A stretch of 32,000 nucleotides of DNA from Nitrosarchaeum sp. Its GTDB lineage: Archaea; Thermoproteota; Nitrososphaeria; Nitrososphaerales; Nitrosopumilaceae. Position numbers and translations under genes: made by a program. A model generated the notes under the pieces. That model ran no database searches. It saw only the letters and a program-made list of their open reading frames with translations, and had not been told where the DNA came from. The stretch is taken from positions 536,391 through 568,390 of the forward strand of contig JAILWJ010000001.1 in NCBI GenBank assembly GCA_025699025.1. Direction: 5' to 3'. Shown piece by piece: positions 15,027-32,000 of the stretch; positions within the stretch are counted from its first letter, which is position 1; each line of letters begins with the position of its first letter.

Positions 15027-15066
15027 GACGTATCCACTGCAAGACTAGAATAAAAAACTACACAAG

Positions 15067-16030: not shown

Positions 16031-16195
16031 TTGTCACACACATGCATTGGATGCGGAATTGAACTAGAGGGAAATGAAAAGTTTTGCTCCAGTCAATGCC
16101 AGGACCACCACTTGAAAAGACTCAAAGAGATTATGGTAAATAGCGTTAGAAACGACTCTAACCATACAAACAGCCTGGCACAATATACCGTATAA
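16031..16195 (+). CDS. Possible 54-aa Zn-ribbon protein (C..CG ... FCS..C type)
   Basis: A TTG start would be required. The peptide SHTCIGCGIELEGNEKFCSSQCQDHHLKRLKE resembles the small archaeal Zn-ribbon family with the FCS..C signature. Confidence 0.3.
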   Translation: MSHTCIGCGIELEGNEKFCSSQCQDHHLKRLKEIMVNSVRNDSNHTNSLAQYTV

Positions 16196-16278
16196 GCAGA
16201 TATTCTGGCATCCGCCAAGATAGGAGGACACCACATTTTGTGTTTACAAAATGACGTACACGATGTTATGATGTGATA

Positions 16279-16725: not shown

Positions 16726-17130
16726 GTGTTTTCATACGCTTTAGAATTTTTAAGGAATTCTAAAGCATAAATTGAAAAAACAGATAGAATGGATAATTCA
16801 TCTAATTACGAACTAGGTGTTATGGGCGAATACAGACGGGATAAAACAATCGAGTAAATTTCTCACAAACACGCATTTCGTGTTTTGATAACTTGAGATG
16901 TATGAAATTCTTTTCTTGACAAACATCAGATAAACAAGATATTTAGAATTTCTAATGATAATATCAGTCTTCACCGACTGACAGTTGTTTCTTTGAGATA
17001 GAATCGGCTTTTTGTATGCTAAACCACTCTTTTATACTAGAATGACGTATACAAGATAGGTTTTGTTGTTAGTATGATGTATGATCAAAAGAAAAAATAT
17101 GAGAAATCCTGGGTTTCGGTAAAACAATAA

Positions 17131-17712
17131 ATGAATTTAACACGTGGTTTTCTTGTTCTGACAGTTTCTGCATTATTCATGATGAGTTTTGGTTCGTATG
17201 TGTTTGCTCAAGAAGTTACAATTCAGAAACCACCACTAAGTTTAGGCGGCAACCACTTTGGTTCAATGATAAAGACCCAAACAGTTTCATCTGATGGCTC
17301 TATCTGGATATTTCTTACCACCACAGAACCTGTAGAAAGAGAACACATGACAATCAATGTAAGATTTACCGATGAGAATGGCAAACAGGTCAACGGTATC
17401 AACTATGACATCATAGCAACTCAGAATGAACAGATTATTTTGTCAGAAACAATGGTTCATCAGCGCATAGGCATTGGAGATCACCTCACACAAGCATTGC
17501 CAAGCGATGATGCAGTTAACGTAAAGATCACACTACAAGGCATAGGGACAAATCCTCCATTCACAGGACCGCAAGGGGAATCCATCCAGATTATTGCAGT
17601 TCCTGAATTTGGAACAGTTGCAATGATCATCCTCGGCATATCCATTTTGAGCATAGTGATGATCAGCAAAAAGGGCACCCTGTCATTTCTAAGCCAGAAA
17701 TATACGGTCTGA
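17131..17712 (+). CDS. Secreted protein with PEFG-CTERM archaeal sorting signal
   Basis: 193 aa. Signal peptide (LVLTVSALFMMSFGSYVFAQE). The C-terminal AVPEFGTVAMIILGISILSIVMISKKG gives PEFG, a TM helix and a basic patch. Confidence 0.75.
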   Translation: MNLTRGFLVLTVSALFMMSFGSYVFAQEVTIQKPPLSLGGNHFGSMIKTQTVSSDGSIWIFLTTTEPVEREHMTINVRFTDENGKQVNGINYDIIATQNEQIILSETMVHQRIGIGDHLTQALPSDDAVNVKITLQGIGTNPPFTGPQGESIQIIAVPEFGTVAMIILGISILSIVMISKKGTLSFLSQKYTV

Positions 17713-17935
17713 TCAGCACAATAGGAAATTGGTTCATGTTCTTAAGACCCAGTAATTTTGAGAATTTTATGTGATCTTGGGTCTATTTGGATTTTTAGAT
17801 CATATTTCTGAGCATCAAGGTTTTGCCTTGAAATTCTTTGCTACATAGTGGAACTTGTCTGTGTTTTTTTGATGCGAGATAAACTGTTGATCCATAGTAC
17901 CTTAGATCATAGGAAAGAAAATCGATTAATTTTTC

Positions 17936-18619
17936 TTATATCCTAATAAAGAAAAACAACACAGTTCCTGCCAGCACACCAAAGGTTATTGCTTTTAAAA
18001 CATACTCTTTCTTTTTAGCCTGCAACACATTTGAACTCTGCATAAAGTGCTTGTACTTTCTTGAAGTAATAACTAGCAAATAGGTAATAATGCCAGATAT
18101 TGCTGAGAGAAGCAACGTTTCTAGTGATATTGAATTTGACTGAATCGCAGATCCAGCAAAAACGGGCAGCATTCCCCACGAAAATACTGTTGATGCATTA
18201 TTATGAAATTTTCCTCCAAACAATTCCATATTATATGCAAAAAGAAAAAACCCCTCGGCGATCCCAATTGGAATTAATAATAGAGAATCAAGTACAGCAT
18301 AAAAAATTCCAATGCTAAATGATATCCCAAGTGCAGTCAACGCAATAATGACTAGTTTTCTTTTTGGGAGTTCGCCCCAAGGTTTTGTTTTTCCACAAAC
18401 TGCATCAAGAAGATGCGCAGACACACCCACTGCAAGAAAGTAAATTATGGCAATGGCGACGGTTCTTTCTATTGCAAACCCATCTATCAGCGAGCCCCAA
18501 ATTGCAAAACACATCACAATGCCAGTATAAGGCAAAAACAAAATCCCCACACTGGTTTTAAATTTTCTTGAACCAAACTTTGGCACAAACCATTCCCCAG
18601 TTCTGTCTTTTTGCACCAT
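17936..18619 (-). CDS. Polytopic membrane protein (hypothetical)
   Basis: 227 aa with about 6-7 hydrophobic segments. No family recognised. Confidence 0.55.
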   Translation of the reverse strand: MVQKDRTGEWFVPKFGSRKFKTSVGILFLPYTGIVMCFAIWGSLIDGFAIERTVAIAIIYFLAVGVSAHLLDAVCGKTKPWGELPKRKLVIIALTALGISFSIGIFYAVLDSLLLIPIGIAEGFFLFAYNMELFGGKFHNNASTVFSWGMLPVFAGSAIQSNSISLETLLLSAISGIITYLLVITSRKYKHFMQSSNVLQAKKKEYVLKAITFGVLAGTVLFFFIRI

Positions 18620-18686
18620 ATCAATTGGAGTTTATCGCTTATATCCTTCAGTTGTGGATTCAAAGCGGCATATTTTATAGTAAAAA

Positions 18687-19097
18687 ATGCCAACCCAAAC
18701 TATGGGCGTGTATAAAAAATTTATAAAAAAAGGCGTCAGCGAACCTTTAGAAAAAATCAGTTTTCATAAAAAGGCACCCATAAAGCGTCTATTGATGCTT
18801 GATAACAAACTAATTCCAGAATCTGATACCCACATAGCGGTTCATTTTGTAAGCGCAAATGGGAAAAAGATTTCCGAGTACAGTGAGTCGCACAAGCATG
18901 ATGCAGATGAGATTAACCTGATCTTGTCTGAAAACGGCAAATTAGCATATGAAATTCAACTTGAAGATGAAATTTACAAAGTTTCTTCGCCATCTACGGT
19001 GTTCATACCCAAAGGAGTCAGGCATCGGGCAAGAGTCTTGTCAGGTAGTGGGATCTTTGTATGCATAATTCTGTCAAGCAAGTACAAATCATCATGA
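18687..19097 (+). CDS. Cupin-fold protein (putative)
   Basis: 136 aa. The block SPSTVFIPKGVRHRARVLSGSGIFVCI resembles cupin motif 2 (P.G..H). Weak evidence. Confidence 0.45.
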   Translation: MPTQTMGVYKKFIKKGVSEPLEKISFHKKAPIKRLLMLDNKLIPESDTHIAVHFVSANGKKISEYSESHKHDADEINLILSENGKLAYEIQLEDEIYKVSSPSTVFIPKGVRHRARVLSGSGIFVCIILSSKYKSS

Positions 19098-19292
19098 AAT
19101 TAGCTTGATTGAAAACACTGTCAACTCACCCTTGTTTGAGGATAGAACTGCCAGTTTTGCCAATAACCTCCGTTTCTTCTTAATATCTCCAAACTGATGT
19201 GTTTTTTGTCTAGTTTGTCCAGAGTCACAATTGCCATAAAGCAAAGTCACCAATTAAACTACAAAAATATACTCCAATTGCCCGATTATACC

Positions 19293-19916
19293 ATGGATGA
19301 AAAAATTGCAACTGTTTTGGACAGATTGGAAAAGCAGGAAAAATACGAGCTTGATAATCATGACAAGGTCCCGCATCAAGAAAGAATGCTTGCAATTACT
19401 CCAAGCATAGGAAAGTTTTACAATATTTTACTACGTGCTGCCAAGGCAACCTCGGTATTGGAGATTGGGACATCTGTAGGATATTCTACAATTTGGTTTG
19501 CAGATGCCCTAAGAGAATCATTGAGTTCAAGCATCACGACAATCGAGGTTGATCAAAATAAAATAAAGCAGGCAAGAAAAAACTTTGCAGATTCCGGGGT
19601 GGATGATATCATAGAAATACGGCAGGGTGACGCATTGGATGTATTAAATAAGATTTATCAGGAAGCAGATCATAAATCAATTTTTGATTTTGTCTTCATT
19701 GATGCAGACAAGGAGAGATATCGAGAGTATTTTGATTTAAGTTTTAAGCTAGTTAAAGTGGGTGGAATAATCGCTGCCGATAACATTTTGAAGCCAGAAA
19801 GATTTGGAGATATGATGAGAGACTATCAGGAGCATGTCAGAAAAAATACAAAAATTCTTTCAGTAACAGTGCCAATTGATAATGGCGAAGAAATTTCATT
19901 CAAACTTGATGACTAG
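19293..19916 (+). CDS. Class I SAM-dependent O-methyltransferase (family 3, caffeoyl-CoA OMT-like)
   Basis: An ATG at 19293 is preferred over the upstream start. SAM motif VLEIGTSVGYST is present. Later blocks are ITTIEVD, FDFVFIDADKERYREYFDL and VKVGGIIAADNIL. Confidence 0.8.
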   Translation: MDEKIATVLDRLEKQEKYELDNHDKVPHQERMLAITPSIGKFYNILLRAAKATSVLEIGTSVGYSTIWFADALRESLSSSITTIEVDQNKIKQARKNFADSGVDDIIEIRQGDALDVLNKIYQEADHKSIFDFVFIDADKERYREYFDLSFKLVKVGGIIAADNILKPERFGDMMRDYQEHVRKNTKILSVTVPIDNGEEISFKLDD

Positions 19917-19924
19917 TTGCTTTG

Positions 19925-20026
19925 ATCTATTGTTTTAAAATAGTAGGCTGCCACTTATTTGTAGATGGTTTGTGTCTGATTTTCTCCATGCGTGTATGTT
20001 TTTGACACGGAAACGACATAATTCAT
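19925..20026 (-). pseudogene. Truncated homologue of the casposon Zn-ribbon basic protein (intact copy at 25050-25316)
   Basis: Minus-strand translation MNYVVSVSKTYTHGENQTQTIYK* compares with MKYVVSVSKTYTHRGNHRHKSTT in the intact gene. There is a premature stop at 19955-19957. Residual nucleotide similarity continues to about 19938. Confidence 0.7.
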
Positions 20027-20204
20027 GATACTATGCTACTGCAAACTAATAAGAACAGATTATGATGTTATTTTTTGTCTGGAAATGGCTTGCATAAAAC
20101 CACATAGATGGATCTATTGATTCAATGAGAGGTTGATAGAATACCAAAATATTGATGTGAGGAGAAGTTTATGGAGAAATTTCATGCCTGCGTAATTATT
20201 ATAT

Positions 20205-20705
20205 GTGTTTCCAGTGAAACTACTTTCTACGTTAAACAGACTCAAAAGGCACAAAATTGAGTGAGATGTTGTGGCTTTTGCTACTGACTCTGTATGCACT
20301 ACCAGAAAGGTAGCAAGTAGCTCAAATGAGCTAGGTCAGTTTAGTTTGGACAAGTCAGGAGATGACGTATTTTTCTTGCAAAACGGCATTTACCGGGTAA
20401 ACGGTAAATGGAAACAGAGAGGTTTGGGACATTTGGGAACAAAAGAGATTGAGCATCTTGATACCGTGGAAAAAGATGGAAAACTGTATTACAAGTTTAA
20501 GGTGTTACGTGCAGGGCAGTTGCGCTCTTCAATTATTCAAAATGACATTGATAATATCGGCAAGTTCTCAGAGATGACCAGACAGATTGATCTTAATGCG
20601 GATAAAAAGAGAACATGGCTGGGTCAGATCAAAACTGTCGATTGTAAAACAATAAATGATTCGATACCCATATCATTGAATCACATTAATAAAGAAAATC
20701 TCTAA
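20205..20705 (+). pseudogene. Family-B DNA polymerase fragment (C-terminal part, internally deleted, in-frame stop)
   Basis: 20265-20705 encodes VVAFATDSVCTT...GDDVFFLQNGIYRVNGKWKQRGLGHLGTKEIEHL...SLNHINKENL. By eye this is roughly 60 percent identical to residues about 449-594 of the intact PolB. 20205-20250 (VFPVKLLSTLNRLK) resembles PolB residues about 332-347. A stop lies at 20262-20264, and about 100 codons plus the whole N-terminal half are missing. Confidence 0.85.
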
Positions 20706-21022
20706 ATGATTTGTTTCTTCTTTAATTCGCTTATTACGGCTTCAGTTATTTCAGACGTCAATTGTTCAAGTTTATCTTTATATTGCATCATCACATTGTC
20801 AATTACTTCTTGGATTTTTTCTTGAGATTCTATCTTTTGTTGTGTATTTGTTTCGATGGCTCTGGCTATCGGTTCTATTTGATTTCTAACTTCTGAGAAT
20901 GCATCACGTACTGAATAATACACTTTATCAGAAACACCTCCTAGCTGCTCCTCTAAGTCTTGTTTCATTTTTTTCATTTTCTCTTCAATTTGATTAGAGA
21001 TATTTTCACCAGATGAATTCAT
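20702..21022 (-). CDS. Hypothetical coiled-coil protein (cargo of the decayed element)
   Basis: 106 aa E/K/Q-rich ORF between the PolB pseudogene and the terminal repeat. It has no counterpart in the intact element. Confidence 0.4.
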   Translation of the reverse strand: MNSSGENISNQIEEKMKKMKQDLEEQLGGVSDKVYYSVRDAFSEVRNQIEPIARAIETNTQQKIESQEKIQEVIDNVMMQYKDKLEQLTSEITEAVISELKKKQII

Positions 21023-21154
21023 CTATAAATAATTGAATTTGAACTAAATAAATATGATGATTCCAAATAAAATTACGTCAGAATTTTAGTTAGTATCACA
21101 CAGTTTTACTATTTTATGATCTTAAAGTCTTACGACAACTGTCATAATTTTATT

Positions 21155-21174
21155 CGTAAAAGGGGGGCGTTGCC
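21155..21174. repeat. Right terminal repeat of the decayed element (variant TIR with G6 tract)
   Basis: cgtaaaaggggggcgttgcc sits directly before the direct repeat. The intact right end reads cgaaatggggggattctatt. The G6 run lies 12 vs 11 nt from the shared ACTCTCTG core. Confidence 0.6.
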
Positions 21175-21195
21175 TTTTTACTCTCTGTCGATAAA
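21175..21195. repeat. Direct repeat, middle copy (target-site duplication; orphan copy of the aEF-2 3' end)
   Basis: tttttactctctgtcgataaa is identical 21/21 to 29998-30018. Its reverse complement encodes FIDRE-stop. Because of the A/T runs at the junctions, the true TSD is between about 13 and 21 bp. Confidence 0.9.
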
Positions 21196-21218
21196 AATAG
21201 AATCCCCCCATTTCGTGC
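21196..21218. repeat. Left terminal inverted repeat (perfect core)
   Basis: aatagaatccccccatttcgtgc is the exact reverse complement of 29977-29999. Imperfect similarity (blocks tgct, tttt, ggacta) continues to about 21250 vs 29945. Confidence 0.9.
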
Positions 21219-21312
21219 CTGAGTTTGTGCTAGTTTTGGTAATGGACTAGAACATAACGAAGATTATGATTTGTTGGAGAATAGTTATAACGAAATTACA
21301 AATCGATAATGT

Positions 21313-21561
21313 ATGTCTGATGATTATGACTTTCAAAAGAAATTAGCAAAGTATCAGTTAAAGGCTACTGCGATTTCGATTTTTGGAAGTACAATAATTG
21401 CATTAGGAATTGCTTTGGCTTCGATTTCTGTAACTATTGAAAATCAAGGAATGTCAATTTTAATTCTCACAATAGGAATAATGCTAATTCTATCCTCGTT
21501 ACTTATAGTTGTGATAAACTTGTGGCGAATCAGTAAACACATAGATAGAATCAACAAATGA
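21313..21561 (+). CDS. Small two-helix membrane protein, translationally coupled to cas1
   Basis: 82 aa with two hydrophobic helices. The stop overlaps the Cas1 start (ATGA at 21558-21561). Confidence 0.55.
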   Translation: MSDDYDFQKKLAKYQLKATAISIFGSTIIALGIALASISVTIENQGMSILILTIGIMLILSSLLIVVINLWRISKHIDRINK

Positions 21562-22562
21562 CCATTAAAGGAAAACAAAACCATTACAACGTAAAGTTTC
21601 TCAAAGGATACGGTCATTCAATTTCTGTAAAAGACTCCAGAATAATTCTAAAATCCAATCATGACCCATTCTCAGAGCCTGAGATTGAATCATGGTATGT
21701 CAAAAATATGCCATACGAAAAGATAATCCTTTCAGGTAAAGGCTACGTCTCAACTGAGGCATTATCAATACTATCTCAGAACAACCGTAACGTCATATTA
21801 TTAGACAATCACGGAAAACCTGTAACTTTCATGAATGGCATGATGGATTCACTCACTACAACAAAATATCGCATGGCTCAATATGATACATTTCGAGATG
21901 AATCAAAGTGTGAGTATTTGCGTCAGCAAATCATACAAAGTAAGAAAGAATCACAATTGAAACTTCTCAAATTAATTGGAAGTGATGTTACTGAACTGCC
22001 AGATTCAGAACACCTTTCTGCCAAAGTCTACTGGTCTGAATTCGCTAAATTCATTCCTGAAAAATATCAGTTCCATTCCAGAAATCAGAGTTTCATCAGA
22101 ACTAGCAAAAATAATGCAACTGATGTAATCAATGCTTTATTGAATTATGGTTATTCCGTTTTAGCTGGAGAAATCTCAAAATTTGTTTGTGGAATGGGAT
22201 TAGACCCATACTTTGGATTCATGCACAAATCTCATACGGGTTTTCAACCGTTGGTCTATGATATCATAGAGCCGTTTAGGTGGTTGGTCGATTATTCTGT
22301 GTATCAAATAGCAAACAATGGCAGTGACAGGCAGAAAATAAAACTAAAAGAGTACAGTTACACAAAAGATGGAACTGTGGTTATGGAATATTCTCTGATC
22401 AAGAGGTTTTTGGAAATGCTGGAAAGACAATTTCAAAAGGAGAGAAAATATGATTTTAGACATGGGAAGAAGACAAAGGATGGTTTGAAATCTGTACAGG
22501 AAATTACGATTGTAAAGACCATGATTCAGAATTTAGTAGAGTTTTGTCAAAAACATGTTTAG
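21558..22562 (+). CDS. cas1: Cas1-family integrase (casposase), stand-alone
   Basis: 334 aa. Cas1 signature blocks are NALLNYGYSVLAGE (E205, nt 22170), GLDPYFGFMHKS (H223, nt 22224) and PLVYDIIEPFRWLVD (D235/E238, nt 22260). These supply the conserved E-H-D metal-binding triad. The N-terminal beta-rich part (ILSGKGYVSTEALSILSQNNRNVILLDNHGKPV) fits the Cas1 N-domain. Confidence 0.9.
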   Translation: MTIKGKQNHYNVKFLKGYGHSISVKDSRIILKSNHDPFSEPEIESWYVKNMPYEKIILSGKGYVSTEALSILSQNNRNVILLDNHGKPVTFMNGMMDSLTTTKYRMAQYDTFRDESKCEYLRQQIIQSKKESQLKLLKLIGSDVTELPDSEHLSAKVYWSEFAKFIPEKYQFHSRNQSFIRTSKNNATDVINALLNYGYSVLAGEISKFVCGMGLDPYFGFMHKSHTGFQPLVYDIIEPFRWLVDYSVYQIANNGSDRQKIKLKEYSYTKDGTVVMEYSLIKRFLEMLERQFQKERKYDFRHGKKTKDGLKSVQEITIVKTMIQNLVEFCQKHV

Positions 22563-22589
22563 TACATTTCCAGTTTGATTTATAATAAT

Positions 22590-23300
22590 TCATTGCTCAA
22601 ATGACGGGATATTTTGGATGATAATTATCTCATTTGCTTTGACTATTGATTCAAGCATATCGTGTACGTCTTCAACTAGATTAAGATAATTATCCCATGT
22701 ATCAAAGGACATGTTTTTTCCATCAATAAAGTCAAACTGTTTATTTTTGTAATGTATTGTTGTGTTTCCCGGATTATCTGGAAGATATACTCCATTATTA
22801 TGAAACGAATTTCTGTAAAGTCTTAGAATATCTAACAATTTTTCATATTCATTTGAATCTAATGTGATATGTCTTGGACTTAACAACCAACTATACATAT
22901 TTTTGAAACTTCTCTTTGTATTTTCATATGCTGTATGATCCATAGATTTCACTATGGCTCTGAATGAGCTTTCTATCATTGAAAATAAAAAGAACACCAA
23001 ACTGAAACGAAGTGTTTTGTTAAAAGATTCTAATGTTTCATCAATTATGATTTTTGTTTCATTATTTGTAATGTCTCCAAATTGTTTCCACCAATCTTTT
23101 TGTTGTGCATGGTCTCTAGTTAAAACTGCACCCAATTCGGTTGAACGCAATACATTTTTGCATTTTATAAAAATTGCCAATCTTGCATCAGTTTTTTTCC
23201 AATTTGGATTTTGTTGTTGTAATGAAAAATATGTATCACAATATTTGTTTTTAATTTTTTCAAGTCTAATAGTTACAGATTTCCATTTTATGTCAGTCAT
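22590..23300 (-). CDS. Hypothetical cargo protein (possible HEPN/Abi-like helical domain)
   Basis: 236 aa. The block LLDILRLYRNSFHNNG resembles the R(N)xxxH helix of HEPN/Abi proteins, but the spacing is non-canonical. Confidence 0.5.
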   Translation of the reverse strand: MTDIKWKSVTIRLEKIKNKYCDTYFSLQQQNPNWKKTDARLAIFIKCKNVLRSTELGAVLTRDHAQQKDWWKQFGDITNNETKIIIDETLESFNKTLRFSLVFFLFSMIESSFRAIVKSMDHTAYENTKRSFKNMYSWLLSPRHITLDSNEYEKLLDILRLYRNSFHNNGVYLPDNPGNTTIHYKNKQFDFIDGKNMSFDTWDNYLNLVEDVHDMLESIVKANEIIIIQNIPSFEQ

Positions 23301-23312
23301 ACAAAAATGAAA

Positions 23313-23340
23313 ATTTATATGAACTTAAGCATATTGATTA
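23313..23340 (-). promoter_or_regulatory. Repeated promoter-like block, copy 1 (upstream of 22590-23300)
   Basis: atttatatgaacttaagcatattgatta. On the minus strand it reads ...caatatgcttaagttcatataaat, with a TATA-like box about 15-25 nt before the ATG. Confidence 0.45.
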
Positions 23341-23354
23341 GAACCGAATATGTT

Positions 23355-23699
23355 CTACTGAGGAACAAATTGGAGAAGTAAAAGATATCCTACAATCCAA
23401 CTAATACCGTAAATCAACAATCCTACTATCCAATGACCAAAAATTCGTATTGGAGCAAATATGGATACAAGAAAAGCTATTATAGATATCGCAATTAACC
23501 AGTTTCTCATCACATCACAATTGTACTGAGTTTGTTCATTATCCAATAATTCCAATTCACAGAATTCATCTAGGACAAAATTTGCAATAGCATATTGATT
23601 TGTGGGCACTTCAAATGTGGTTGAAATTCCAAATAGAATTCCTGCAATAAACCCTGCTTTAAAAACAAGAATACCTGTTGCAATTACACCTTTTGCCAT
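23355..23699 (-). CDS. Small membrane protein (cargo)
   Basis: 114 aa with 3-4 hydrophobic segments. Confidence 0.5.
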   Translation of the reverse strand: MAKGVIATGILVFKAGFIAGILFGISTTFEVPTNQYAIANFVLDEFCELELLDNEQTQYNCDVMRNWLIAISIIAFLVSIFAPIRIFGHWIVGLLIYGISWIVGYLLLLQFVPQ

Positions 23700-23707
23700 A
23701 ACATTAC

Positions 23708-23740
23708 AAATTTTTGTATGAACTTAAGCATATTGCACAT
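23708..23740 (-). promoter_or_regulatory. Repeated promoter-like block, copy 2 (upstream of 23355-23699)
   Basis: aaatttttgtatgaacttaagcatattgcacat. The core tatgaacttaagcatattg (23717-23735) is identical to 23318-23336. Confidence 0.45.
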
Positions 23741-23863
23741 CAAGATTAAATACAAATTTTGCAATCATACCCATGCTCGAAGAAGCAATCCAAGAGTTCA
23801 TGGCATTTGTAGGCAGGTTCTGTCTGGATAATCTGCCATATCTTACATGCAGTTCATAAAATT

Positions 23864-24076
23864 CTATTTTTTCTTTTTTTGAATCTTTGGTTTTGCTAAA
23901 ACCTTACCAAGAAAAAGCGATCCAAATATGATTGGAAGTATTCCAAAACCCCAAAATTCGTATGCTGTAAGTGGGTTTACATCTTCATACGAAACTAGAA
24001 TATTTGCAATTACGATTAATCCAATACACACTAAACCAAAGTTAATACAAATCGAGATAATTTTAGAGAGTTTCAT
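23864..24076 (-). CDS. Small two-helix membrane protein (cargo)
   Basis: 70 aa with two hydrophobic helices and a KPKIQKKKK tail. Confidence 0.45.
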   Translation of the reverse strand: MKLSKIISICINFGLVCIGLIVIANILVSYEDVNPLTAYEFWGFGILPIIFGSLFLGKVLAKPKIQKKKK

Positions 24077-24099
24077 TCTTACTCATTAAATAACATATA

Positions 24100-24128
24100 A
24101 AATTTGTTTATGAACTTAAACCTGTTGG
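24100..24128 (-). promoter_or_regulatory. Repeated promoter-like block, copy 3 (divergent region 24077-24162)
   Basis: aaaatttgtttatgaacttaaacctgttgg. This is a degenerate version of the same block (tatgaacttaaacctgttg). Confidence 0.4.
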
Positions 24129-24162
24129 AAAATGAAATAAATCAGTATTCAGTGGTTTGATT

Positions 24163-25053
24163 ATGAAATGGATTTTTTTGTTAATTGCATTTGGTTTTTT
24201 CAGTCCTGTATATGCAGAAGAATCTACGTTAAATGACATCCAAACACAATTAGATAATCAGATAAATCAGCAAAATCTAAAGAAATTAGAACAAAGAGTT
24301 TCAAATCTAGAAAACCAATCATCATTTGAAGACCAGTTTGTTTCAAGCGAAGAATATACTAAATTAATGAGTCGATTACATATTTTAGAAAATAATGATC
24401 AATTGAAAAATGAACTGATTTCTTTGAAAACCGTTCTTGATACAGAACTATCAGAAATGAATAGTTCAATGACAATTGCACAAAAAACTGCCACTGATTC
24501 ATTTTTGTTAGGAATTTACATTTCGATTGGGTTTGCAGGAATCGCAATAGGAGCTACAATGCTGTATTCTAGAAAAATGGAAATACAAACAGAATTGATA
24601 AAAACAGACATCAAAACACGGATTAGACCAATTTTAAGCAGAAAAGAATTAGAAAAAAAAGTTAGGAATTCAAATGAACAATTAGTAAAACATGTATTCA
24701 CTCTAACTCGACATAAAGCATTATTTCATTTTCAAAACACTGGAACATTGCCAGCCGTAAACATTTCACGAAATTATTATGCAGAGATCAGAGAAACACC
24801 ATCAGATGTAATCAAATTGAATCCTAAAGAATATGTTGATGTGATTAAAATGGCAACCTTAGCTCCAAATGAATATTATAGTACAGATGTTTTTTGGTTA
24901 GACCCATGTTTTGATAATGCCGTTGATAGAAATAATTGCTATTTTGGATTAGTTATTTGGTATCACGATTCCAAAGGGACAAGATATTATTATCATATCG
25001 AAGGATTTTTTGATCATGGGGAATTGATGATAACTCATGTTGATATGAATTAA
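24163..25053 (+). CDS. Membrane-anchored coiled-coil protein (cargo, hypothetical)
   Basis: An ATG at 24163 is preferred over the TTG at 24157. Signal/anchor MKWIFLLIAFGFFSPVYA, then a Q/N/E-rich coiled coil, a central TM (FLLGIYISIGFAGIAIGATMLY) and a C-terminal globular part. Confidence 0.55.
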   Translation: MKWIFLLIAFGFFSPVYAEESTLNDIQTQLDNQINQQNLKKLEQRVSNLENQSSFEDQFVSSEEYTKLMSRLHILENNDQLKNELISLKTVLDTELSEMNSSMTIAQKTATDSFLLGIYISIGFAGIAIGATMLYSRKMEIQTELIKTDIKTRIRPILSRKELEKKVRNSNEQLVKHVFTLTRHKALFHFQNTGTLPAVNISRNYYAEIRETPSDVIKLNPKEYVDVIKMATLAPNEYYSTDVFWLDPCFDNAVDRNNCYFGLVIWYHDSKGTRYYYHIEGFFDHGELMITHVDMN

Positions 25054-25316
25054 AATTCACAATACGGACATTCTAATTCTTCTTTACTAGATTTCACAAA
25101 TCCCAAAAACGCATTTCCACAATCAGTACAAAAATACTTTAATCGTTTTCTCTTCTGAGCCTTGTAGTACAATGCCTGCAACCAACTAACTCTCTGAGTT
25201 CTAAAATTTCCATCTTCATCATAGTAATAGATATGCCATCTCTTCTTAGTTGTTGATTTGTGCCTGTGATTTCCACGATGTGTGTAAGTTTTTGACACTG
25301 AAACAACATACTTCAT
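25050..25316 (-). CDS. Basic Zn-ribbon protein conserved in both casposon copies
   Basis: 88 aa, rich in K/R/H/Y. C-terminal CTDC ... CPYC Zn ribbon. The N-terminus and upstream region are homologous to 19938-20065. Confidence 0.6.
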   Translation of the reverse strand: MKYVVSVSKTYTHRGNHRHKSTTKKRWHIYYYDEDGNFRTQRVSWLQALYYKAQKRKRLKYFCTDCGNAFLGFVKSSKEELECPYCEF

Positions 25317-25327
25317 GATACCTCAAT

Positions 25328-25358
25328 GCTACTTCAAACTAATAAGAACAGATTATGA
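25328..25358 (-). promoter_or_regulatory. Highly conserved non-coding block upstream of the Zn-ribbon gene
   Basis: gctacttcaaactaataagaacagattatga matches 20035-20065 (gctactgcaaactaataagaacagattatga) at 30 of 31 positions. This is far above the similarity of the flanking coding DNA. On the minus strand, cttattag lies about 25-30 nt before the ATG (TATA-like). Confidence 0.45.
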
Positions 25359-25916
25359 CTATTCTAAATTCTCAATCGTGCCTTTACTTAACAAAGAATC
25401 AGGAGCATGAACAAAAGGAACTTGTTTTTTTGAACCAGTATTTTTTGTAAACTTTGCAATTGATTGCATCAACAAAAGTGTATCACGTAGCTGTTCCCGT
25501 ATGTGCCATTTGAATTCTTCTGGCATTAGCTTCATCAGACCTTCTAATCCAATGTTAAAGAAATTATAATACATGATAAATGAGAATATTTTGTCAGGAT
25601 CCTCGTCAGATTGTTTTTGATCAGCAATTGATGAAGCATATTTTAAAGTGGTCATAAAATCTTCAAAACTTCTACTTGATAGAATTTTTGCTTTGTAGGA
25701 ATTAGGCAAGGGTGAAAAGGCATAATGAAAATCTGAAAATGACTGTTCGATCTTTGATTGAATTTCTCGATAAAACCTATATTTGTTTGAAATTGGAAAA
25801 ACTTCTGGATTCCAAAGATTAGCATATTCGTCATGACTAATCAAAGTTAGTTTTGGATTTGTCTTTTTTATTTCATTCATAATCTTTTCTTGCTTTGCAG
25901 TTTGTCTTTTTTTCAT
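25359..25916 (-). CDS. Hypothetical protein (cargo)
   Basis: 185 aa ORF. No family recognised. Confidence 0.5.
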   Translation of the reverse strand: MKKRQTAKQEKIMNEIKKTNPKLTLISHDEYANLWNPEVFPISNKYRFYREIQSKIEQSFSDFHYAFSPLPNSYKAKILSSRSFEDFMTTLKYASSIADQKQSDEDPDKIFSFIMYYNFFNIGLEGLMKLMPEEFKWHIREQLRDTLLLMQSIAKFTKNTGSKKQVPFVHAPDSLLSKGTIENLE

Positions 25917-25950
25917 TATTATTATTCTATTTTAGACAAATTTAAGCATA

Positions 25951-26199
25951 ATGTTCGTATATACAGTAATGAAGTCAAAAACAAACCAAAAACAAAGAGC
26001 AGACGAGCCAATCGAGACAGACTTTGGCAACAGGCAGGTATCCCACCAGAATTTTTCAAGAATTGTGGCACTGCCTAAAATTGCTCTGCAAAACTGTGGG
26101 ATAACGTCACAGGTATCTGTGAAACTAGTCCTGCAAAACGGAGAAAAATTTCTCAAAATTACTCCGGCAAAAACAAAAGGAGGTGAACATACTGAGTGA
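25951..26199 (+). CDS. Putative AbrB/SpoVT-like DNA-binding protein
   Basis: 82 aa (alternative start at 25969). SRIVALPKIALQNCGITSQVSVKLVLQNGEKFLKITP fits the looped-hinge-helix pattern (v.iPk.i...lgi..g..v.....g..i.i.P). It is the first gene of the plus-strand block that ends with PolB. Confidence 0.4.
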   Translation: MFVYTVMKSKTNQKQRADEPIETDFGNRQVSHQNFSRIVALPKIALQNCGITSQVSVKLVLQNGEKFLKITPAKTKGGEHTE

Positions 26200-26527
26200 A
26201 ACTACCTATCCTCCATTTTTGAAATGGGGAGAATATGCCTCTGATGATCCAGAAAATCCAGATGTACTAGAACTCAAGGTTGCAGATACTGAGACATTTG
26301 AGACGGAATTTTCAATCAATGTAATGGCATTGATCAAGGAAAAGAAATCATGGATAGAATACAACATCCCACTGAAGAGCCACGAATCAAAGAATTCATC
26401 ACTGCTAAACCAGTGGAACAGATTCTCAAAGAATCTCAAGAAAGGAGACAGACTAGTTCTAAAGACGTGGCTTGGAACATCAAAGAACTCTAGGAAGATC
26501 AGGAGGTACAGTCTAGAGAAACTCTAG
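26183..26527 (+). CDS. Hypothetical protein (replication-module neighbour)
   Basis: 114 aa with a GTG start preceded by aaaggagg. No family recognised. Confidence 0.45.
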   Translation: MNILSETTYPPFLKWGEYASDDPENPDVLELKVADTETFETEFSINVMALIKEKKSWIEYNIPLKSHESKNSSLLNQWNRFSKNLKKGDRLVLKTWLGTSKNSRKIRRYSLEKL

Positions 26528-26530
26528 ACA

Positions 26531-26545
26531 TTTTTTTCTTTTTTT
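26531..26545 (+). terminator. Oligo-T tract (archaeal-type terminator candidate)
   Basis: tttttttcttttttt lies immediately after the stop at 26525-26527. Confidence 0.35.
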
Positions 26546-26555
26546 GGTGATTGTG

Positions 26556-26873
26556 ATGATGGAGGATAAAGACAAGCTTGTAAAACAATTGGATGCCCTA
26601 AAGATTTTTCCAAACAACAGACTAGTAAGAGATCTAAAGAATCAGATTAAAAATAAATTAAAAAAATTAGAAACTGTAAAACCTGCAAAACCAAAGAGAG
26701 ACCCAAACGTCTCACGGTCAAGCAAGCTCAAGAGATATCACAACTACATGAGACAGATAAGAAACAACTTTCCAAATTTATCATACAGCCAGATAAGAAA
26801 ACAGTTCTCAAAAAGAAAGCGTGGCGATGACGTATCCATCCCTGATGCAGTATGGCAGAACCCATCCCCGTAA
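26556..26873 (+). CDS. Small highly basic protein overlapping the PolB start (DNA-binding or terminal-protein candidate)
   Basis: About 105 aa from the ATG at 26556. KPAKPKRDPNVSRSSKLKRYHNYMRQIRNNFPNLSYSQIRKQFSKRKRG is loosely HMG-box-like (PKR...aromatic...P.LS). It overlaps the polB start by 22 nt in another frame. Confidence 0.5.
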   Translation: MMEDKDKLVKQLDALKIFPNNRLVRDLKNQIKNKLKKLETVKPAKPKRDPNVSRSSKLKRYHNYMRQIRNNFPNLSYSQIRKQFSKRKRGDDVSIPDAVWQNPSP

Positions 26874-28636
26874 CTGACTGCAAGAGCCTCAGGCGAGTCT
26901 TTACAAAAAAGCCTCAGAACAGAGACCCTGCAAAGTCGCACAAGAGAAAAGTCTATGCAATAGACACCGAGACGTATCAAGGAAACATCTTTCTGATTGC
27001 AGATTCAGACGGCAGATTCTTGGATAAGATCACGCCTGAATCGTGCCTAGACTGGCTATTTTGCAGGAAATACGAGGGAAATTGGTGCTTTTTTTACAAT
27101 CTTGGCTATGATGCAGAAGTCATACTCAAACTATTGGGTTCGGAACTATTCAGGTATAGAAACACTGGCAAGCTCAAATTTTCATTTCAAAAATATACCA
27201 TAGAGTATCATCCAAACAAGTGCCTCAAAATCTCAAAGGGTCACCACTCTGTGATATTTTACGATGTAGCACAGTTTTATCATGCAAGTCTGGCAGATGC
27301 ATATCAGAACAACATCAAGAAATTACCAAAGAAATATCTGGAAACAAAATCCAAGAGAAACCAGTTCTCTGTAACATACTACAAGAGAAACACAAGGCAG
27401 GTAAGAGACTATTGCATACAGGATTGCAAGCTGACAAAAGAACTAGCCATCCACTGGATCAAACTATTTCATGACGCATTTGGGTTCTATCCTGCAAGAT
27501 GGGTTAGTTCAGGATACTTGGCTGAAAAAGTCTTGATCAACAACAACATAGAGTTTCCAAAGTTTGATGATACGCCATATGAGGTGCAGGAGATGGCATT
27601 TGCCTCATACTATGGGGGAAGATTTGAGATTACAAAGCGTGGATATATTGGGACTGCATACAAGTATGACATAAACTCTGCATATCCATACTCTCTGACA
27701 AAAATTCCAGACCTGACAAAAGGAAGATGGATTAAGAGAAAGTCAATCCACCCAAAAGCAGAATTGGGTTTTTTCAGAATTATCGCAGACGTTCCAGACT
27801 GCAAGTACATTCCTCCATTTCCGTTTCGTACCAATGGACTCATTATTTTTCCCAGTGGGAAATTTGAGACATACGTTACATTAGATGAACTCAAAGTTGC
27901 AGACAAGAGATACTACAAAATTCTAGATTCCTACCAGTTCATTCCAGATGGAAAAATAACGTATCCTTTCAAAAAATTTGTAGAGTCAATGTATGAGAAA
28001 AGATTACAATTAAAGAAAGAGGGCAATCCGTTGCAACTGCCAATCAAGATAATACTGAATTCCATATATGGCAAGACTGGTCAGAAAACAAACAGAATAA
28101 TGGGAAATCTGTTCAATCCCGTGATATTTGGTACCATTACAGGCATGACCCGTGCGTATCTCTATGACTTTGTCATGAAAAATGCCATAGAAAACCAAGT
28201 GGTGTTTTTTGCAACAGATTCAGTATGCACTACTGTTCCACTGGATGTTGATTCAGACAGACTGGGAGAGTTTTCTTTGGAAGAAAAGGCAGACGATGTA
28301 TTTGTGTTGCAGAACGGATTCTATCGGTTTAATGGCAAATGGAAGCAGAGAGGTATTGGCAAACTAGGCAGTAAAGAGATCGAACATCTTGAGACATTTG
28401 AGAGAAATGGAAAGTTGTACTATCGATTCAAGGTTTTGAGAAACTCTAGGTTGAGATCATCAATATTGCAGGATTCAATATCTCAGATTGGTAGGATTAG
28501 AGAGCATGTTAGGGAGGTTAATTTGAACGCAGATAGGAAAAGGTTATGGTTAAATCAACTAGACAACATTAATTCAAAAAAATATTTAGATTCATTTCCA
28601 CTTTCTTTAAACCATTTAAACAAAAAGAACATTTGA
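26852..28636 (+). CDS. polB: Family-B DNA polymerase (compact, protein-primed-like type)
   Basis: 594 aa. ExoI YAIDTET (D38/E40), ExoII FFYNLGYDAEVIL, ExoIII YCIQDCKLT. Pol motif A YDINSAYPY (D273, nt 27668), motif B KIILNSIYGKTGQ, motif C FFATDSV (D456, nt 28217). Confidence 0.9.
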   Translation: MAEPIPVTDCKSLRRVFTKKPQNRDPAKSHKRKVYAIDTETYQGNIFLIADSDGRFLDKITPESCLDWLFCRKYEGNWCFFYNLGYDAEVILKLLGSELFRYRNTGKLKFSFQKYTIEYHPNKCLKISKGHHSVIFYDVAQFYHASLADAYQNNIKKLPKKYLETKSKRNQFSVTYYKRNTRQVRDYCIQDCKLTKELAIHWIKLFHDAFGFYPARWVSSGYLAEKVLINNNIEFPKFDDTPYEVQEMAFASYYGGRFEITKRGYIGTAYKYDINSAYPYSLTKIPDLTKGRWIKRKSIHPKAELGFFRIIADVPDCKYIPPFPFRTNGLIIFPSGKFETYVTLDELKVADKRYYKILDSYQFIPDGKITYPFKKFVESMYEKRLQLKKEGNPLQLPIKIILNSIYGKTGQKTNRIMGNLFNPVIFGTITGMTRAYLYDFVMKNAIENQVVFFATDSVCTTVPLDVDSDRLGEFSLEEKADDVFVLQNGFYRFNGKWKQRGIGKLGSKEIEHLETFERNGKLYYRFKVLRNSRLRSSILQDSISQIGRIREHVREVNLNADRKRLWLNQLDNINSKKYLDSFPLSLNHLNKKNI

Positions 28637-28642
28637 ATTATT

Positions 28643-29923
28643 ATGATTTTAACATTAGAAAACTGCGCACATTATTTAGATGCAATAGAAAACTTTGTTG
28701 ATTCTGAATGGTTAAAAATACAAACTGATAAAATAATTGAGTATTATAATACAGTAAACAATACAAGCATTTTAGGAAAATTAGAAGATTATTCAAATCC
28801 ATTGGCATTGTTAATTTATCAAGCAGACAAAACATTATCTCGATTAACAGATGATAAACACGCGCATTCATCTGTTGAATTAATTAAAGCAGTTTCATTA
28901 GGAATGTATTTGGAAAAATTAACTGAAGCAAATCTTGATTTTAAAGATAAATTAACTGATTTGACATCCTCGGATAAAAAATCATTTGAAAAAATAATTT
29001 TTGAGTTAGACATAGCAACTGCATTTTTGAATTCAGGACATTCTGTTGAATTTATCAAAACAGACTCCACACACAATAATCGTACTGCTGATTTACGAAT
29101 AGACGGAACAATAGAAGTAGAATGTAAGAAAAAAGATAAACTCACTAAATTCGACATTCAAAACCAAGATCGATGGAACACATTAAATCGTAAACTCCGA
29201 GCATTTTTTAATGAACAAAAAAAATATCCATTCATCTATATTTTTGTAAAAAATGATCTTTCTCATGAAATTATTCAGAAAATTCTAAAACAAATTAGAA
29301 AAATGACGCATAACAATGAAACCGCATATTCAGATTCAGAAATAAAAATCATGATTGAAGAGTTGTGTAAAAATGACGAAATCATGTCATTAGGATTTCA
29401 AGCAAGAAATAGTGATGAGTTGATGGGAAGAATCAATCCCAAAATAATTGACACCATAATAAAATCCAAGATAAAATACACTCATTTGATGGATTATGAA
29501 TTAATACATCCAGATCATTTTTCAGATGATTCAAAAATTCAAATTGTAAATGAGAATGTGTTTGTAAGTGAACTAAGACGTTATGTTTTCAAATCTTTGA
29601 GAAATGTTCATCGAATGAATGGCATTATATCATCAATTAAAAATGCAAGAAACCAACTTTCTGGAGATACATGTGGTATTATTTGTGTGAATTTTACTCA
29701 TTTAACCGATACTATGATAGAACAAGATTACAAAAATTTGACAAGTTTGATAAATCAGTTTCTTAAAAATAATTCAAAAGTTTCAGCAGTTATTGTTTCT
29801 TCAGAATTCTATTCCACTTCTAGAGATATGAGATTTATTCATAAAGCGCTAATAATTCGAAATCCATTGGCACGCCATAAACTCCCAGATAATTTTCAAT
29901 TCCTTAATGATGTTAGCATGTAA
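28643..29923 (+). CDS. Hypothetical 426-aa cargo protein with PD-(D/E)xK-like motif
   Basis: Very AT-rich ORF. IIFELDIATAF...HSVEFIKTD...TADLRIDGTIEVECKKK gives an E ... D(150) ... E(158/160).K(162) arrangement, like restriction-endonuclease-fold nucleases. Confidence 0.55.
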   Translation: MILTLENCAHYLDAIENFVDSEWLKIQTDKIIEYYNTVNNTSILGKLEDYSNPLALLIYQADKTLSRLTDDKHAHSSVELIKAVSLGMYLEKLTEANLDFKDKLTDLTSSDKKSFEKIIFELDIATAFLNSGHSVEFIKTDSTHNNRTADLRIDGTIEVECKKKDKLTKFDIQNQDRWNTLNRKLRAFFNEQKKYPFIYIFVKNDLSHEIIQKILKQIRKMTHNNETAYSDSEIKIMIEELCKNDEIMSLGFQARNSDELMGRINPKIIDTIIKSKIKYTHLMDYELIHPDHFSDDSKIQIVNENVFVSELRRYVFKSLRNVHRMNGIISSIKNARNQLSGDTCGIICVNFTHLTDTMIEQDYKNLTSLINQFLKNNSKVSAVIVSSEFYSTSRDMRFIHKALIIRNPLARHKLPDNFQFLNDVSM

Positions 29924-29976
29924 TTTTCATAATATTCGATAATTTTTAGTCCTAACGAAAAACAGCAGTGAGTTAC

Positions 29977-29999
29977 GCACGAAATGGGGGGATTCTATT
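29977..29999. repeat. Right terminal inverted repeat (perfect core)
   Basis: gcacgaaatggggggattctatt is the exact reverse complement of 21196-21218. Confidence 0.9.
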
Positions 30000-30018
30000 T
30001 TTACTCTCTGTCGATAAA
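29998..30018. repeat. Direct repeat, right copy (target-site duplication; functional 3' end of aEF-2)
   Basis: tttttactctctgtcgataaa is identical to 21175-21195. It covers the aEF-2 codons F-I-D-R-E and the stop (30001-30003). Confidence 0.9.
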
Positions 30019-32000
30019 CTCGTTGGCAGTTGGTGGGTCTGGTGCAAGTCCCTTTCTCTTCCTAATGTCTGCAACGGCAGCTGCCAGCATTGACTTTGGA
30101 ACTTCAGTCCATGCCTTAAATGACGTATTCCAGGTTGCACGTCCTGCAGTCTGGCCCCTCATCTCCTCAGATAATGTAAATGTCTCTGAAGCTGGAATCT
30201 CGCCGACAATGATGCTTGATGCGCCCTTTTGTGCCATGTCAAGTACCTTGCCCCTCTTGCCTGAAAGAACGGTAGCGACGTTTCCAACCAGGTCAGTTGG
30301 CACACGAACCTCGATTGCCAGTGTAGGCTCTAGCACTGCAACGCCTGCAGTGAGCAGTGCGCCCATGCATGCCCTGCGTGATGCAGGCCCTAGCTGAGAC
30401 AGTCCCCTGTGTGCAGTGTCCTCGTGTGGTACAAAGTGGGTAAATGTAAACTTGCAGTCCCTCATCTGCTCTTTGCACAGCGGACCTTCCTTCATGACCT
30501 CCTCAAATCCTGAATTAATAGAATCAGTAGACTCTTGCACAAACTGGACACCCTTGGTGCCGTTAATCAAAACATTTCCGCGAGAGTCAAACTTCATGAC
30601 GCGCTTAATGGTATCAGTGTCCCAGCCGGCGCCCTTTAGCAACTCGGCTACAACCTTCTTGTCTTTCATATCGCTTATTTCGCCTGTTCGCAACATGTTT
30701 GCAATTTTTGGCTCTAGTGGCTCTACTTTCATGAATATCTTGTTGTGTCTGTTTGGAGACTTTGACATGATTGGCTCACATGTGCCCTTTACTGTCTCCC
30801 TGTAGTTGATCAGCGGCTCTGATGTCACGATATCTACTTTGGCATCCTGGATACGGTGTGTTGCAACATCAAGGTGCAAGACGCCCATTCCTGCCATGAT
30901 GGTCTCGCCGCTTTCTTCATCAATCTTTACTACCAGGTTTGGATCCTCAATGGTGAGTTGTTTTAGCACTTCGACTAGCTTTGGCAAGTCTTTGGGGTGC
31001 TTTGGCTCTATTGCAACCTGAACCACGGGTTCGGACACGTACTTTACCCCCTCAAACATTTGAATTCCCTTAATTGAAGAGATGGTGTTTCCTGCCCGAG
31101 CTTCGGTCAGCCCCAACAGTGCGGGAATGTTTCCGGCTCCAAGTTCTGCGACCTGCTCTCTCTGGTTTCCCATGAAAAAGTTGACAGACTGGACCCTTCC
31201 CTCTCTTTTTGAATCAATAATGTTAATTGTTTGCCCGTCTTTTATTGTGCCAGAGAACAGTCGTCCGATTGCAACCGGTCCTGCCGCAGGATCCAGCACC
31301 ATGTTTACAATCATCATGATTGTTGGCCCATCATCGCTGCATGCAAGCAGTGCCTTTCCGACATCAGATTCCAAGTCTCCCTTCCAGATTTGCGGGATTC
31401 TATACTTTACTGCCACGTGTGGAGGCGGATGGTGCTTTACAACCATTCCCAAGACGGCATCGGCCAGAGGCGCCTTTTCTACAAGGTCCTGGACCTTTTC
31501 GTTTTGGTATGCGTCAATGACATCCTTGAATGTAATTCCTTTTTCTTTCATCACGTCAATGTTGATTGCCCACCTGTCTTTTGCAGAGCCAAAGGTGACG
31601 CTGGCATCCTGAATCGAGACACGCCACTTGTCCTTGTATTCAGGTTCTGCATATGTGTCAATTAATTGGTTAAAGTTTGACACCACTTCTGCCAGCTGCT
31701 GCTGCATCTTTTCAGGGGTGAGTCTTAGTTCTTTGATGAGCCTGTCTACCTTGTTGATAAACAATACAGGCCTTACCCTTTCCTCAAGTGCCATCCTGGT
31801 TACAGTCTCAGTCTGAGTCATGATTCCCTCAACAGAGTCACATACCACTACTGCTCCATCAATTGCCCTGAGGCTGCGAATGACCCTGCCACTAAAGTCC
31901 ACGTGTCCGGGGGTATCAATCATGTTAATGACGTATTCTTTTCCTTTTTGTGAAAAGTGCAAAGTTACATTTGCCTGATAAATTGTAATTCCTCTTGCCT
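30001..32000 (-). CDS. fusA: Translation elongation factor aEF-2 (5' end outside window)
   Basis: The reading frame stays open to the window edge (ARGITIYQANVTLHFSQKGKEYVINMIDTPGHVDFSG). GTPase G-motifs, domains II-V and the H...G diphthamide-region style sequence (HEDTAHRG) are present. The ORF ends ANEFIDRE-stop. Confidence 0.95.
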   Translation of the reverse strand, partial: ARGITIYQANVTLHFSQKGKEYVINMIDTPGHVDFSGRVIRSLRAIDGAVVVCDSVEGIMTQTETVTRMALEERVRPVLFINKVDRLIKELRLTPEKMQQQLAEVVSNFNQLIDTYAEPEYKDKWRVSIQDASVTFGSAKDRWAINIDVMKEKGITFKDVIDAYQNEKVQDLVEKAPLADAVLGMVVKHHPPPHVAVKYRIPQIWKGDLESDVGKALLACSDDGPTIMMIVNMVLDPAAGPVAIGRLFSGTIKDGQTINIIDSKREGRVQSVNFFMGNQREQVAELGAGNIPALLGLTEARAGNTISSIKGIQMFEGVKYVSEPVVQVAIEPKHPKDLPKLVEVLKQLTIEDPNLVVKIDEESGETIMAGMGVLHLDVATHRIQDAKVDIVTSEPLINYRETVKGTCEPIMSKSPNRHNKIFMKVEPLEPKIANMLRTGEISDMKDKKVVAELLKGAGWDTDTIKRVMKFDSRGNVLINGTKGVQFVQESTDSINSGFEEVMKEGPLCKEQMRDCKFTFTHFVPHEDTAHRGLSQLGPASRRACMGALLTAGVAVLEPTLAIEVRVPTDLVGNVATVLSGKRGKVLDMAQKGASSIIVGEIPASETFTLSEEMRGQTAGRATWNTSFKAWTEVPKSMLAAAVADIRKRKGLAPDPPTANEFIDRE

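Follow-up and report, generated by a model that had tools for sequence, protein, structure and literature searches.

The casposon at the 3' end of aEF-2

The stretch of DNA analysed here (32,000 nt, referred to as the window) closes inside an aEF-2 gene on the minus strand, whose N-terminus is missing solely through the window edge. The ORF carries the full set of EF-2 domains (Pfam) and is 94% identical, across all 653 visible residues, to the full-length 730-aa EF-2 of Nitrosopumilaceae. It terminates in ...NEFIDRE*, with the stop codon at 30003-30001, and its last codons are spanned by one copy of a 21-nt sequence, TTTTTACTCTCTGTCGATAAA. This sequence occurs exactly twice in the window, both times on the plus strand and with no mismatches (21175-21195 and 29998-30018). 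No third match with two or fewer mismatches was found in the 32,000 nt, and 100 dinucleotide-preserving shuffles of the window yielded no match at all. The 21-bp direct repeat at the end of aEF-2 described in the initial annotation is therefore real.

Between the two copies lies an intact family 1 casposon, a type of self-replicating transposon that uses a Cas1 integrase, in a Nitrosarchaeum MAG. Its layout matches the definition of this family given by Krupovic et al. in 2014 and 2019. The features of the locus are listed below, with the evidence for each in brackets.

30001-32000, minus strand: aEF-2 gene, 3' end intact, 5' end beyond the window edge (ORF, Pfam, protein comparison)
29998-30018, plus strand: right, aEF-2-proximal copy of the 21-nt repeat (exact match; register from homology to the 13-bp target-site duplication, or TSD, of Ca. 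N. koreensis and from comparative junctions)
21175-21195, plus strand: left, distal copy of the 21-nt repeat (exact match; flanking older terminal inverted repeat, or TIR)
30003-30015, minus strand: probable proximal 13-bp TSD, ATCGACAGAGAGT (sequence, empty sites of relatives, published 13-bp TSD ATTGATAAAGAGT)
21180-21192, minus strand: probable distal 13-bp TSD, common to the intact casposon and the older remnant (sequence and comparative junctions)
21193-30002, plus strand: intact family 1 casposon, 8810 bp (composition, core genes, TIRs)
21193-21218, plus strand: left TIR, AAAAATAGAATCCCCCCATTTCGTGC, 26 nt perfect, imperfect to 21240 (inverted-repeat search)
29977-30002, plus strand: right TIR, GCACGAAATGGGGGGATTCTATTTTT, 26 nt perfect, imperfect from 29955 (inverted-repeat search)
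21558-22562, plus strand: casposase (Cas1 homologue), 334 aa, without a C-terminal HTH (Pfam, NCBIfam, structure match)
22590-25053, no strand assigned: element-specific cargo ORFs of 236, 114, 70 and 298 aa (repeat family D1/D2)
25050-25916, minus strand: two genes, for a zinc-ribbon protein (88 aa) and a protein of 185 aa (homologues in related locus L002, 72% and 56% identical)
25951-26873, plus strand: three small conserved genes of 82, 114 and 109 aa, directly upstream of PolB (ordered homologues)
26852-28636, plus strand: predicted protein-primed-type family B DNA polymerase (PolB), 594 aa (Pfam, PHROGs)
28643-29923, plus strand: cargo ORF of 426 aa between PolB and the right TIR (ORF only)
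16928-21179, no strand assigned: remains of at least one older casposon, ~4.25 kb, 35-37% G+C (TIR, fragments, synteny break)

The G+C content of the intact casposon (~31%) lies well apart from that of the host flanks (40-49%). Perfect inverted repeats adjoin the inner sides of the two 21-nt copies, 23 nt long at 21196-21218 and 29977-29999, or 26 nt with the A/T runs included; further in, the inverted repeat covers 49 nt at 82%. The right TIR contains a TTCTA motif, one studied in vitro. The suggestion of a mobile element between the copies is thus borne out by its TIRs, Cas1 and PolB. As to the host, the nearest aEF-2 relatives are Nitrosopumilaceae, and a 100% identical Cas1 protein at NCBI is labelled as Nitrosarchaeum MAG.

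The Cas1 integrase expected in the element was confirmed; Cas_Cas1 is the sole Pfam domain of the casposase (E=1.6e-42), NCBIfam gives TIGR00287 (4e-41), and the best match among solved structures is the M. mazei casposase (6OPM, 1e-28). It is 85% identical to the enzyme of Ca. Nitrosopumilus koreensis AR1, and aligned end to end with the AR1, NF5 and Nitrosarchaeum casposases it shows 79-88% identity. All five residues mutated in the 2021 study of the AR1 enzyme (R113, K117, K184, Y197 and Y234) are kept, as are E151, H223, D235 and E238, the acidic and histidine residues of the Cas1 active-site motif.

PolB matches PF03175 (DNA_pol_B_2, 1.2e-28) and the DNA polymerase family phrog_11768 (4e-67), and by these matches is assigned to the protein-primed type. 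It is 45-63% identical to the PolB of related casposons, and a PolB scan of viral contigs returned no relative. Family 1 casposons carry three to four small conserved genes before PolB (PMC4046053, PMC6563490); the three found here have homologues in the same order in L001, L002, L004 and NitAR1-C1. The 88-aa protein upstream of them has a weak Pfam match to Zn_ribbon_8.

The remaining genes are cargo. The ORFs at 22590-25053 have no match in Pfam, PADLOC or PHROGs, and the 426-aa ORF has none in Pfam, NCBIfam, PADLOC or PHROGs. A motif of ~38 nt with the core TTTATATGAACTTAAGCATATTG sits directly before the start codons of three consecutive minus-strand cargo ORFs (23299-23336, 23698-23735 and 24090-24127), with a weaker copy at 25931-25953. 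It is probably a repeated promoter for leaderless transcripts.

No CRISPR array (Tandem Repeats Finder) and no tRNA gene is present in the window. Other Cas domains, including cas2 and effectors, were absent from the ORFs submitted to Pfam and NCBIfam, which were those of 9991-31962 apart from several small ones.

Length of the target-site duplication

Both copies of the repeat are flanked by A/T runs that extend the inverted repeat, and the window sequence alone therefore permits a TSD of roughly 11-21 bp. The initial annotation had pointed to this ambiguity of the TIR/TSD boundary, and rightly so; its own range for the duplication was 13-21 bp. To place the boundary we relied on homology to the AR1 system and on a comparison of more than 20 junctions and empty sites. 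At the AR1 site, only the central 13 bp (ATTGATAAAGAGT) of an apparent 22-bp repeat are duplicated, as shown by the sequencing of in vitro products; the preceding TTT is the minimal leader, and A1, A11 and T13 of the target are critical (PMC8464041). Read on the gene strand, the window repeat is TTT-ATCGACAGAGAGT-AAAAA, in the AR1 register and with A1, A11 and T13 kept, and the aEF-2 3'-end target of the window element includes AACGAGTTTATCGACAGAGAGTAAACC. The true TSD is therefore most probably the central 13 bp, ACTCTCTGTCGAT (21180-21192 and 30003-30015), and homology to AR1 together with the comparative junctions would give this particular element a 13-bp stagger.

A duplication of the whole 21 bp, or most of it, is improbable. 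The two copies are indeed identical across 21 nt, and 'TSDs' of 21-27 nt have been published for NitAR1-C1, NitNF5-C2 and NitNF5-C1, but this reading would call for a stagger far above the ~13-15 bp that casposases are known to make. In vitro, an enzyme 85% identical to the one in the window left the outer 4+5 bp of the AR1 repeat unduplicated. Related junctions also bound the duplication on both sides. On the gene side, L002 and L004 read TAT in the gene-proximal flank and TTT in the distal one, which leaves at most one extra duplicated base; on the far side, the native AATTC after the distal copy in Nitrosopumilus oxyclinae (L022) differs after AA and leaves at most two. The published repeat of NitDev-C2 is exactly 13 nt in the same register (PMC6563490). 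Finally, the surplus bases are the element's own terminal A/T run, which also lengthens the inverted repeat. Of the range in the initial annotation, the low end of 13 bp is the probable length, on AR1 homology and the junction bounds.

With this register, each 21-nt copy resolves into three parts. The right copy, read on the plus strand, consists of the TTTTT terminus of the element (29998-30002), the probable 13-bp TSD (30003-30015) and 3 nt of native aEF-2, the closing AAA being the Phe codon TTT on the minus strand. The left copy opens with TTTTT (21175-21179), the T-run in which the inverted repeat of an older casposon ends, continues with the probable TSD (21180-21192) and closes with AAA, the first 3 nt of the left terminus of the intact casposon. 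On either side of the TSD, TTTTT and AAA belong to the A/T termini of the element and imitate the flanks of the target. The initial annotation had considered that the repeat might belong to the element termini rather than to a duplicated target; this holds for 8 of the 21 bases (TTTTT on the right, AAA on the left) but not for the core.

The same arrangement explains why the gene is unharmed. The proximal TSD contains the Ile-Asp-Arg-Glu codons and the T of the TAA stop, the far-side cut in our model falling between T and AA (T|AA). For the AA of the stop codon (30002-30001), the gene draws on the terminal A-run of the casposon, so that TAA and the aEF-2 C-terminus are preserved. The duplication was said to keep the native C-terminus, and it does, with the stop codon rebuilt from the element.

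At positions 5-8 of the TSD, the window has ACAG where the AR1 site has its ATAA 'ruler', and spacing control at the ACAG target may differ in detail from that at AR1. Across the collected junctions, these positions read ACAG, ACAA or ATAA. T2, G4, A5, A7, A11 and T13 are invariant at the aEF-2-linked sites, and G10 is C in N. oxyclinae. The window thus offers a natural target variant, with the ruler exchanged and A11 and T13 kept, for a close homologue (85% identity) of a characterised enzyme. The comparative junctions lend indirect support to a casposase that would integrate sequence-specifically at the end of aEF-2, with a stagger of 13 bp.

Reuse of the site and a proposed mode of integration

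The initial annotation took the repeat copy at 21175-21195 for an orphan footprint. It is instead the second TSD copy, common to the TIR of a decayed older casposon. The sequence directly upstream of it (21159-21179, AAAGGGGGGCGTTGCCTTTTT) is 84% like the right end of the intact element over 37 nt, and the older right TIR (21138-21179; gene strand, AAAAAGGCAACGCCCCCCTTTTACGAATAAAATTATGACAGT) is identical to the published NitNF5-C1 TIR at 38 of 42 positions. Further left, 20247-20702 encodes a C-terminal piece of PolB that matches residues 443-594 of the intact protein at 58% identity, and 19954-20065 holds part of the 88-aa gene region. Because the left copy is common to the decayed casposon, the two elements form a tandem array. 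Judged by their relative decay, new elements would enter at the gene-proximal copy.

The extent of the older material follows from a sister genome, the Nitrosarchaeum MAG GCA_025698765.1 (L024), whose flank is 97% identical to window positions 8924-16934. Synteny with it breaks at 16927/16928, which assigns the ~4.25 kb at 16928-21179 to old array material. Five remnant ORFs in this region (193 aa, 227 aa, a cupin-like 136 aa, an O-methyltransferase of 239 aa, and 106 aa) are without counterpart in the sister genome. No convincing left end of the older element or third repeat copy was found in the window by approximate 13-mer, 21-mer and TIR matching and a listing of G/C runs; the best candidate, at the synteny break (16915-16927), is a weak 6/13 match. 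In the flank, AT skew is strongly negative (-0.27 to -0.37) at 11000-13000, where the minus strand carries two large ORFs that the sister genome also has, one of 487 aa and one of 507 aa with an MG2 domain.

Relatives of the host show the site empty, occupied and scarred. Empty sites, which we located through aEF-2 homologues, were found in six loci (L013-L018; aEF-2 91-93% identical), with no Cas1 or PolB within 10 kb and with downstream genes syntenic with window positions 4221-15029. They read ...GAGT|AAACC or ...GAAT|AATCTG. The initial annotation had asked whether relatives lacking the element already carry two copies of the 21-mer; all six carry a single copy of the target. A metagenome scan with the exact gene-end 24-mer gave two matches, neither of them an empty site: one was occupied and the other an orphan. 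In the closest aEF-2 relative (L012, 94%), only a scar is left directly after the stop codon (12194-12420); it combines a degenerate TIR (AAAAATAGAAATCTTCCG...) with 47 aa of PolB.

Occupied sites are common. The order of gene end, 13-mer, AAAAA and TIR recurs at aEF-2 in eight loci (L002, L003, L004, L011, L020, L021, L022 and L024), with elements in both orientations. In the sister genome (8003-18594), the aEF-2 13-mer is the same as in the window, yet the intact casposon beside it is another one, with the TIR AAAAAGGGAAAGCCCCCC and a Cas1 88% identical to that of the window; the distal remnant also differs in its TIR. A different casposon at the identical 13-mer indicates that the aEF-2 site has been hit repeatedly and recently. 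Such a near-identical genome pair testifies to recent turnover of family 1 casposons in vivo. In the literature searched, we found no in vivo report of family 1 turnover, the in vivo translocation study there being of the M. mazei casposon.

Two of the occupied loci deserve separate description. The ~4.1-kb casposon at aEF-2 of N. oxyclinae (CP026994.1; 9294-13366) has Cas1 but no PolB, and its cargo includes a cyclase (PF00211) and PycTM gene pair, a Pycsar-type defence. In L004, six tandem 21-nt units (AGTGACAGACAATGACAAATT) lie inside the casposon near its aEF-2-proximal end (19068-19185) and partly resemble the 13-mer target.

We consider it very likely that the repeat is the TSD of a family 1 casposon inserted site-specifically at the aEF-2 3' end by its own Cas1-family casposase. 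The casposase would recognise TTT-ATCGACAGAGAGT-AA(A) at the gene end and attach each 3' end of the element to one target strand, at positions 13 bp apart; one would lie in front of the Ile codon, the other within the stop codon, between T and AA. Gap repair would then duplicate the 13 bp. The AAAAA.../...TTTTT termini would mimic the TTT and AA(A) flanks of the target, so that the visible repeat grows to 21 nt, TAA is rebuilt and aEF-2 is unchanged. The site has received at least two insertions; beyond the distal copy lie the decayed remains of an older casposon from another lineage. The newer element would have gone in at the gene-proximal copy, the pattern of published tandem casposon arrays and also of new spacers in CRISPR arrays. 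Sequence-specific site choice, proposed from the window alone, is borne out by the recurrence of casposons at the aEF-2 site in relatives.

Alternatively, a tyrosine or serine recombinase with its target at the aEF-2 3' end could have moved an integrative element here, and the two copies would then be its attL and attR. A location at the end of a conserved gene does recall the way integrases target tRNA genes, and related loci hold 22-45-nt copies of the aEF-2 3' end away from aEF-2, which are att-like lengths. We nevertheless regard this as very unlikely. No tyrosine or serine recombinase domain was found in the element ORFs scanned (Pfam, NCBIfam, PADLOC and PHROGs), perfect TIRs flush with the repeat are a trait of transposons and not of att sites, and the casposase is near-identical in key residues to an enzyme proven to integrate at this very sequence. 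A chance or pre-existing pair of 21-mers, unrelated to insertion, is less credible still; nothing beyond the low-complexity A/T runs at the ends speaks for it, and it is contradicted by the shuffles, by the single copy in relatives without the element and by the perfect inverted repeats of a Cas1 and PolB element that the copies abut.

Orphan aEF-2 ends and known systems

Copies of the aEF-2 3' end also occur in related loci beside casposon TIRs with no aEF-2 gene nearby. These orphans consist of 9-32 nt of leader followed by the 13-mer, and number six junctions in five loci plus one in L023:

L001, 9273-9311
L006, ~2365-2392
L007, ~1228-1257
L008, ~1327-1351
L010, 1236-1269 and 2125-2158
L023, ~18811-18835

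In L001, the orphan follows a leucyl-tRNA synthetase gene with no gap after its stop codon, and L023 is the complete isolate genome of N. ureiphilus. A further case may be NitEve-C1, whose published 'intergenic' TSD, GCGACAAAGAG, resembles the orphans.

A 13-bp duplication cannot produce such copies. Several other explanations were considered and rejected: MAG misassembly, as one orphan is in a complete isolate genome; chance similarity, as 14-15 of 15 leader bases are identical; a TSD with a long stagger, as no casposon end lies upstream; inversion between casposons, as aEF-2 would stay attached; and an integrase att site, as L001 and L023 have host core genes immediately before the orphan. 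Perhaps the aEF-2 3' end, as a 9-32-nt 'leader' with the 13-bp target, is copied along with casposons to new chromosomal places and forms portable landing pads that seed arrays. We put this forward tentatively, as a reading that is possible but more doubtful than not, drawn from the related loci and not from the window. If true, casposons would mobilise or regenerate their own target, much like the leader-repeat unit of CRISPR, and published 'non-ef-2' targets such as that of NitEve-C1 could be displaced ef-2 ends.

The casposon and tandem array in the window are a further example of a phenomenon described between 2014 and 2021, and the targeting of aEF-2 is not new. It was reported for thaumarchaeal casposons in 2014 (Krupovic et al., PMC4046053). 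EF-2 was later found to be their commonest target, with a tandem pair at ef-2 of Ca. N. adriaticus NF5 (Krupovic et al. 2019, PMC6563490), and an in vitro assay of the kind called for in the initial annotation showed the Ca. N. koreensis enzyme inserting at the end of aEF-2 and leaving a TSD of 13 bp (Wang et al. 2021, PMC8464041). For Nitrosarchaeum, family 1 Cas1 was noted in 2025.

The closest known element is NitAR1-C1 (AR1 locus L020), which has the same gene order and 78-80% nucleotide identity over Cas1 and the block from the small genes to PolB. Its published TIR is identical to the end of the window's element at 57 of 65 positions, including AAAAATAGAATCCCCCC. Both elements have the same target (the last codons and stop of aEF-2) and an apparent repeat of 21-22 nt in the same register, and in both a TIR remnant from another casposon comes after the distal copy. 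In the AR1 locus, the distal TSD copy is followed by AAAAAGGCAGTCCCCCC..., the TIR of another casposon type (GGCAG-type; 17548-17600), which makes the 'spacer' side of the natural target used in 2021 an old casposon end. The two differ in host (Nitrosarchaeum, not Nitrosopumilus), in their cargo genes, which are unlike, and in the 13-mer (ATCGACAGAGAGT vs ATTGATAAAGAGT). They also lie in opposite orientations relative to aEF-2, which is expected given the symmetric ends and a target flanked by TTT...AAA.

NF5 offers the nearest parallel to the array. NitNF5-C1 and NitNF5-C2 (PMC6563490), like the elements in the window, are a tandem of two casposon lineages at aEF-2 with one TSD copy in common, and their published TSD, TTTTTACTCTTTATCAATAAA, is the direct counterpart of the window 21-mer. 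A NitNF5-C1-type element is the distal one in both; in the window, an intact AR1-type element lies next to the gene. Unlike in NF5, the distal element of the window is reduced to fragments, without a left end or Cas1 and with only the C-terminal third of PolB.

Family 2 casposons (AciBoo-C1 of Aciduliprofundum boonei and those of Methanosarcina mazei) likewise use Cas1 for site-specific integration by the 3' end of a conserved gene, with a TSD of ~14-15 bp and a leader-like motif upstream of it, and they form tandem arrays in M. mazei. However, their target is the 3' end of tRNA genes, their PolB is of a different type, and their casposase has a C-terminal HTH (431 aa in 6OPM, 334 aa in the window).

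Two more distant systems share parts of this behaviour. CRISPR spacer acquisition by Cas1-Cas2 relies on a homologous integrase whose staggered attacks duplicate a repeat-sized segment, with leader-proximal preference and ruler-type spacing control. The window has no Cas2, array or interference genes in the ORFs scanned, and it is the 8.8-kb element itself that becomes inserted. Tn7 has a TnsABC+D transposition machinery unrelated to the casposase, makes a 5-bp duplication and inserts downstream of its target gene, whereas the casposon lies inside the stop codon. At attTn7, downstream of glmS, it too recognises the 3' end of an essential conserved gene and does no damage, a comparison drawn by Krupovic et al. 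2014 (PMC4046053).
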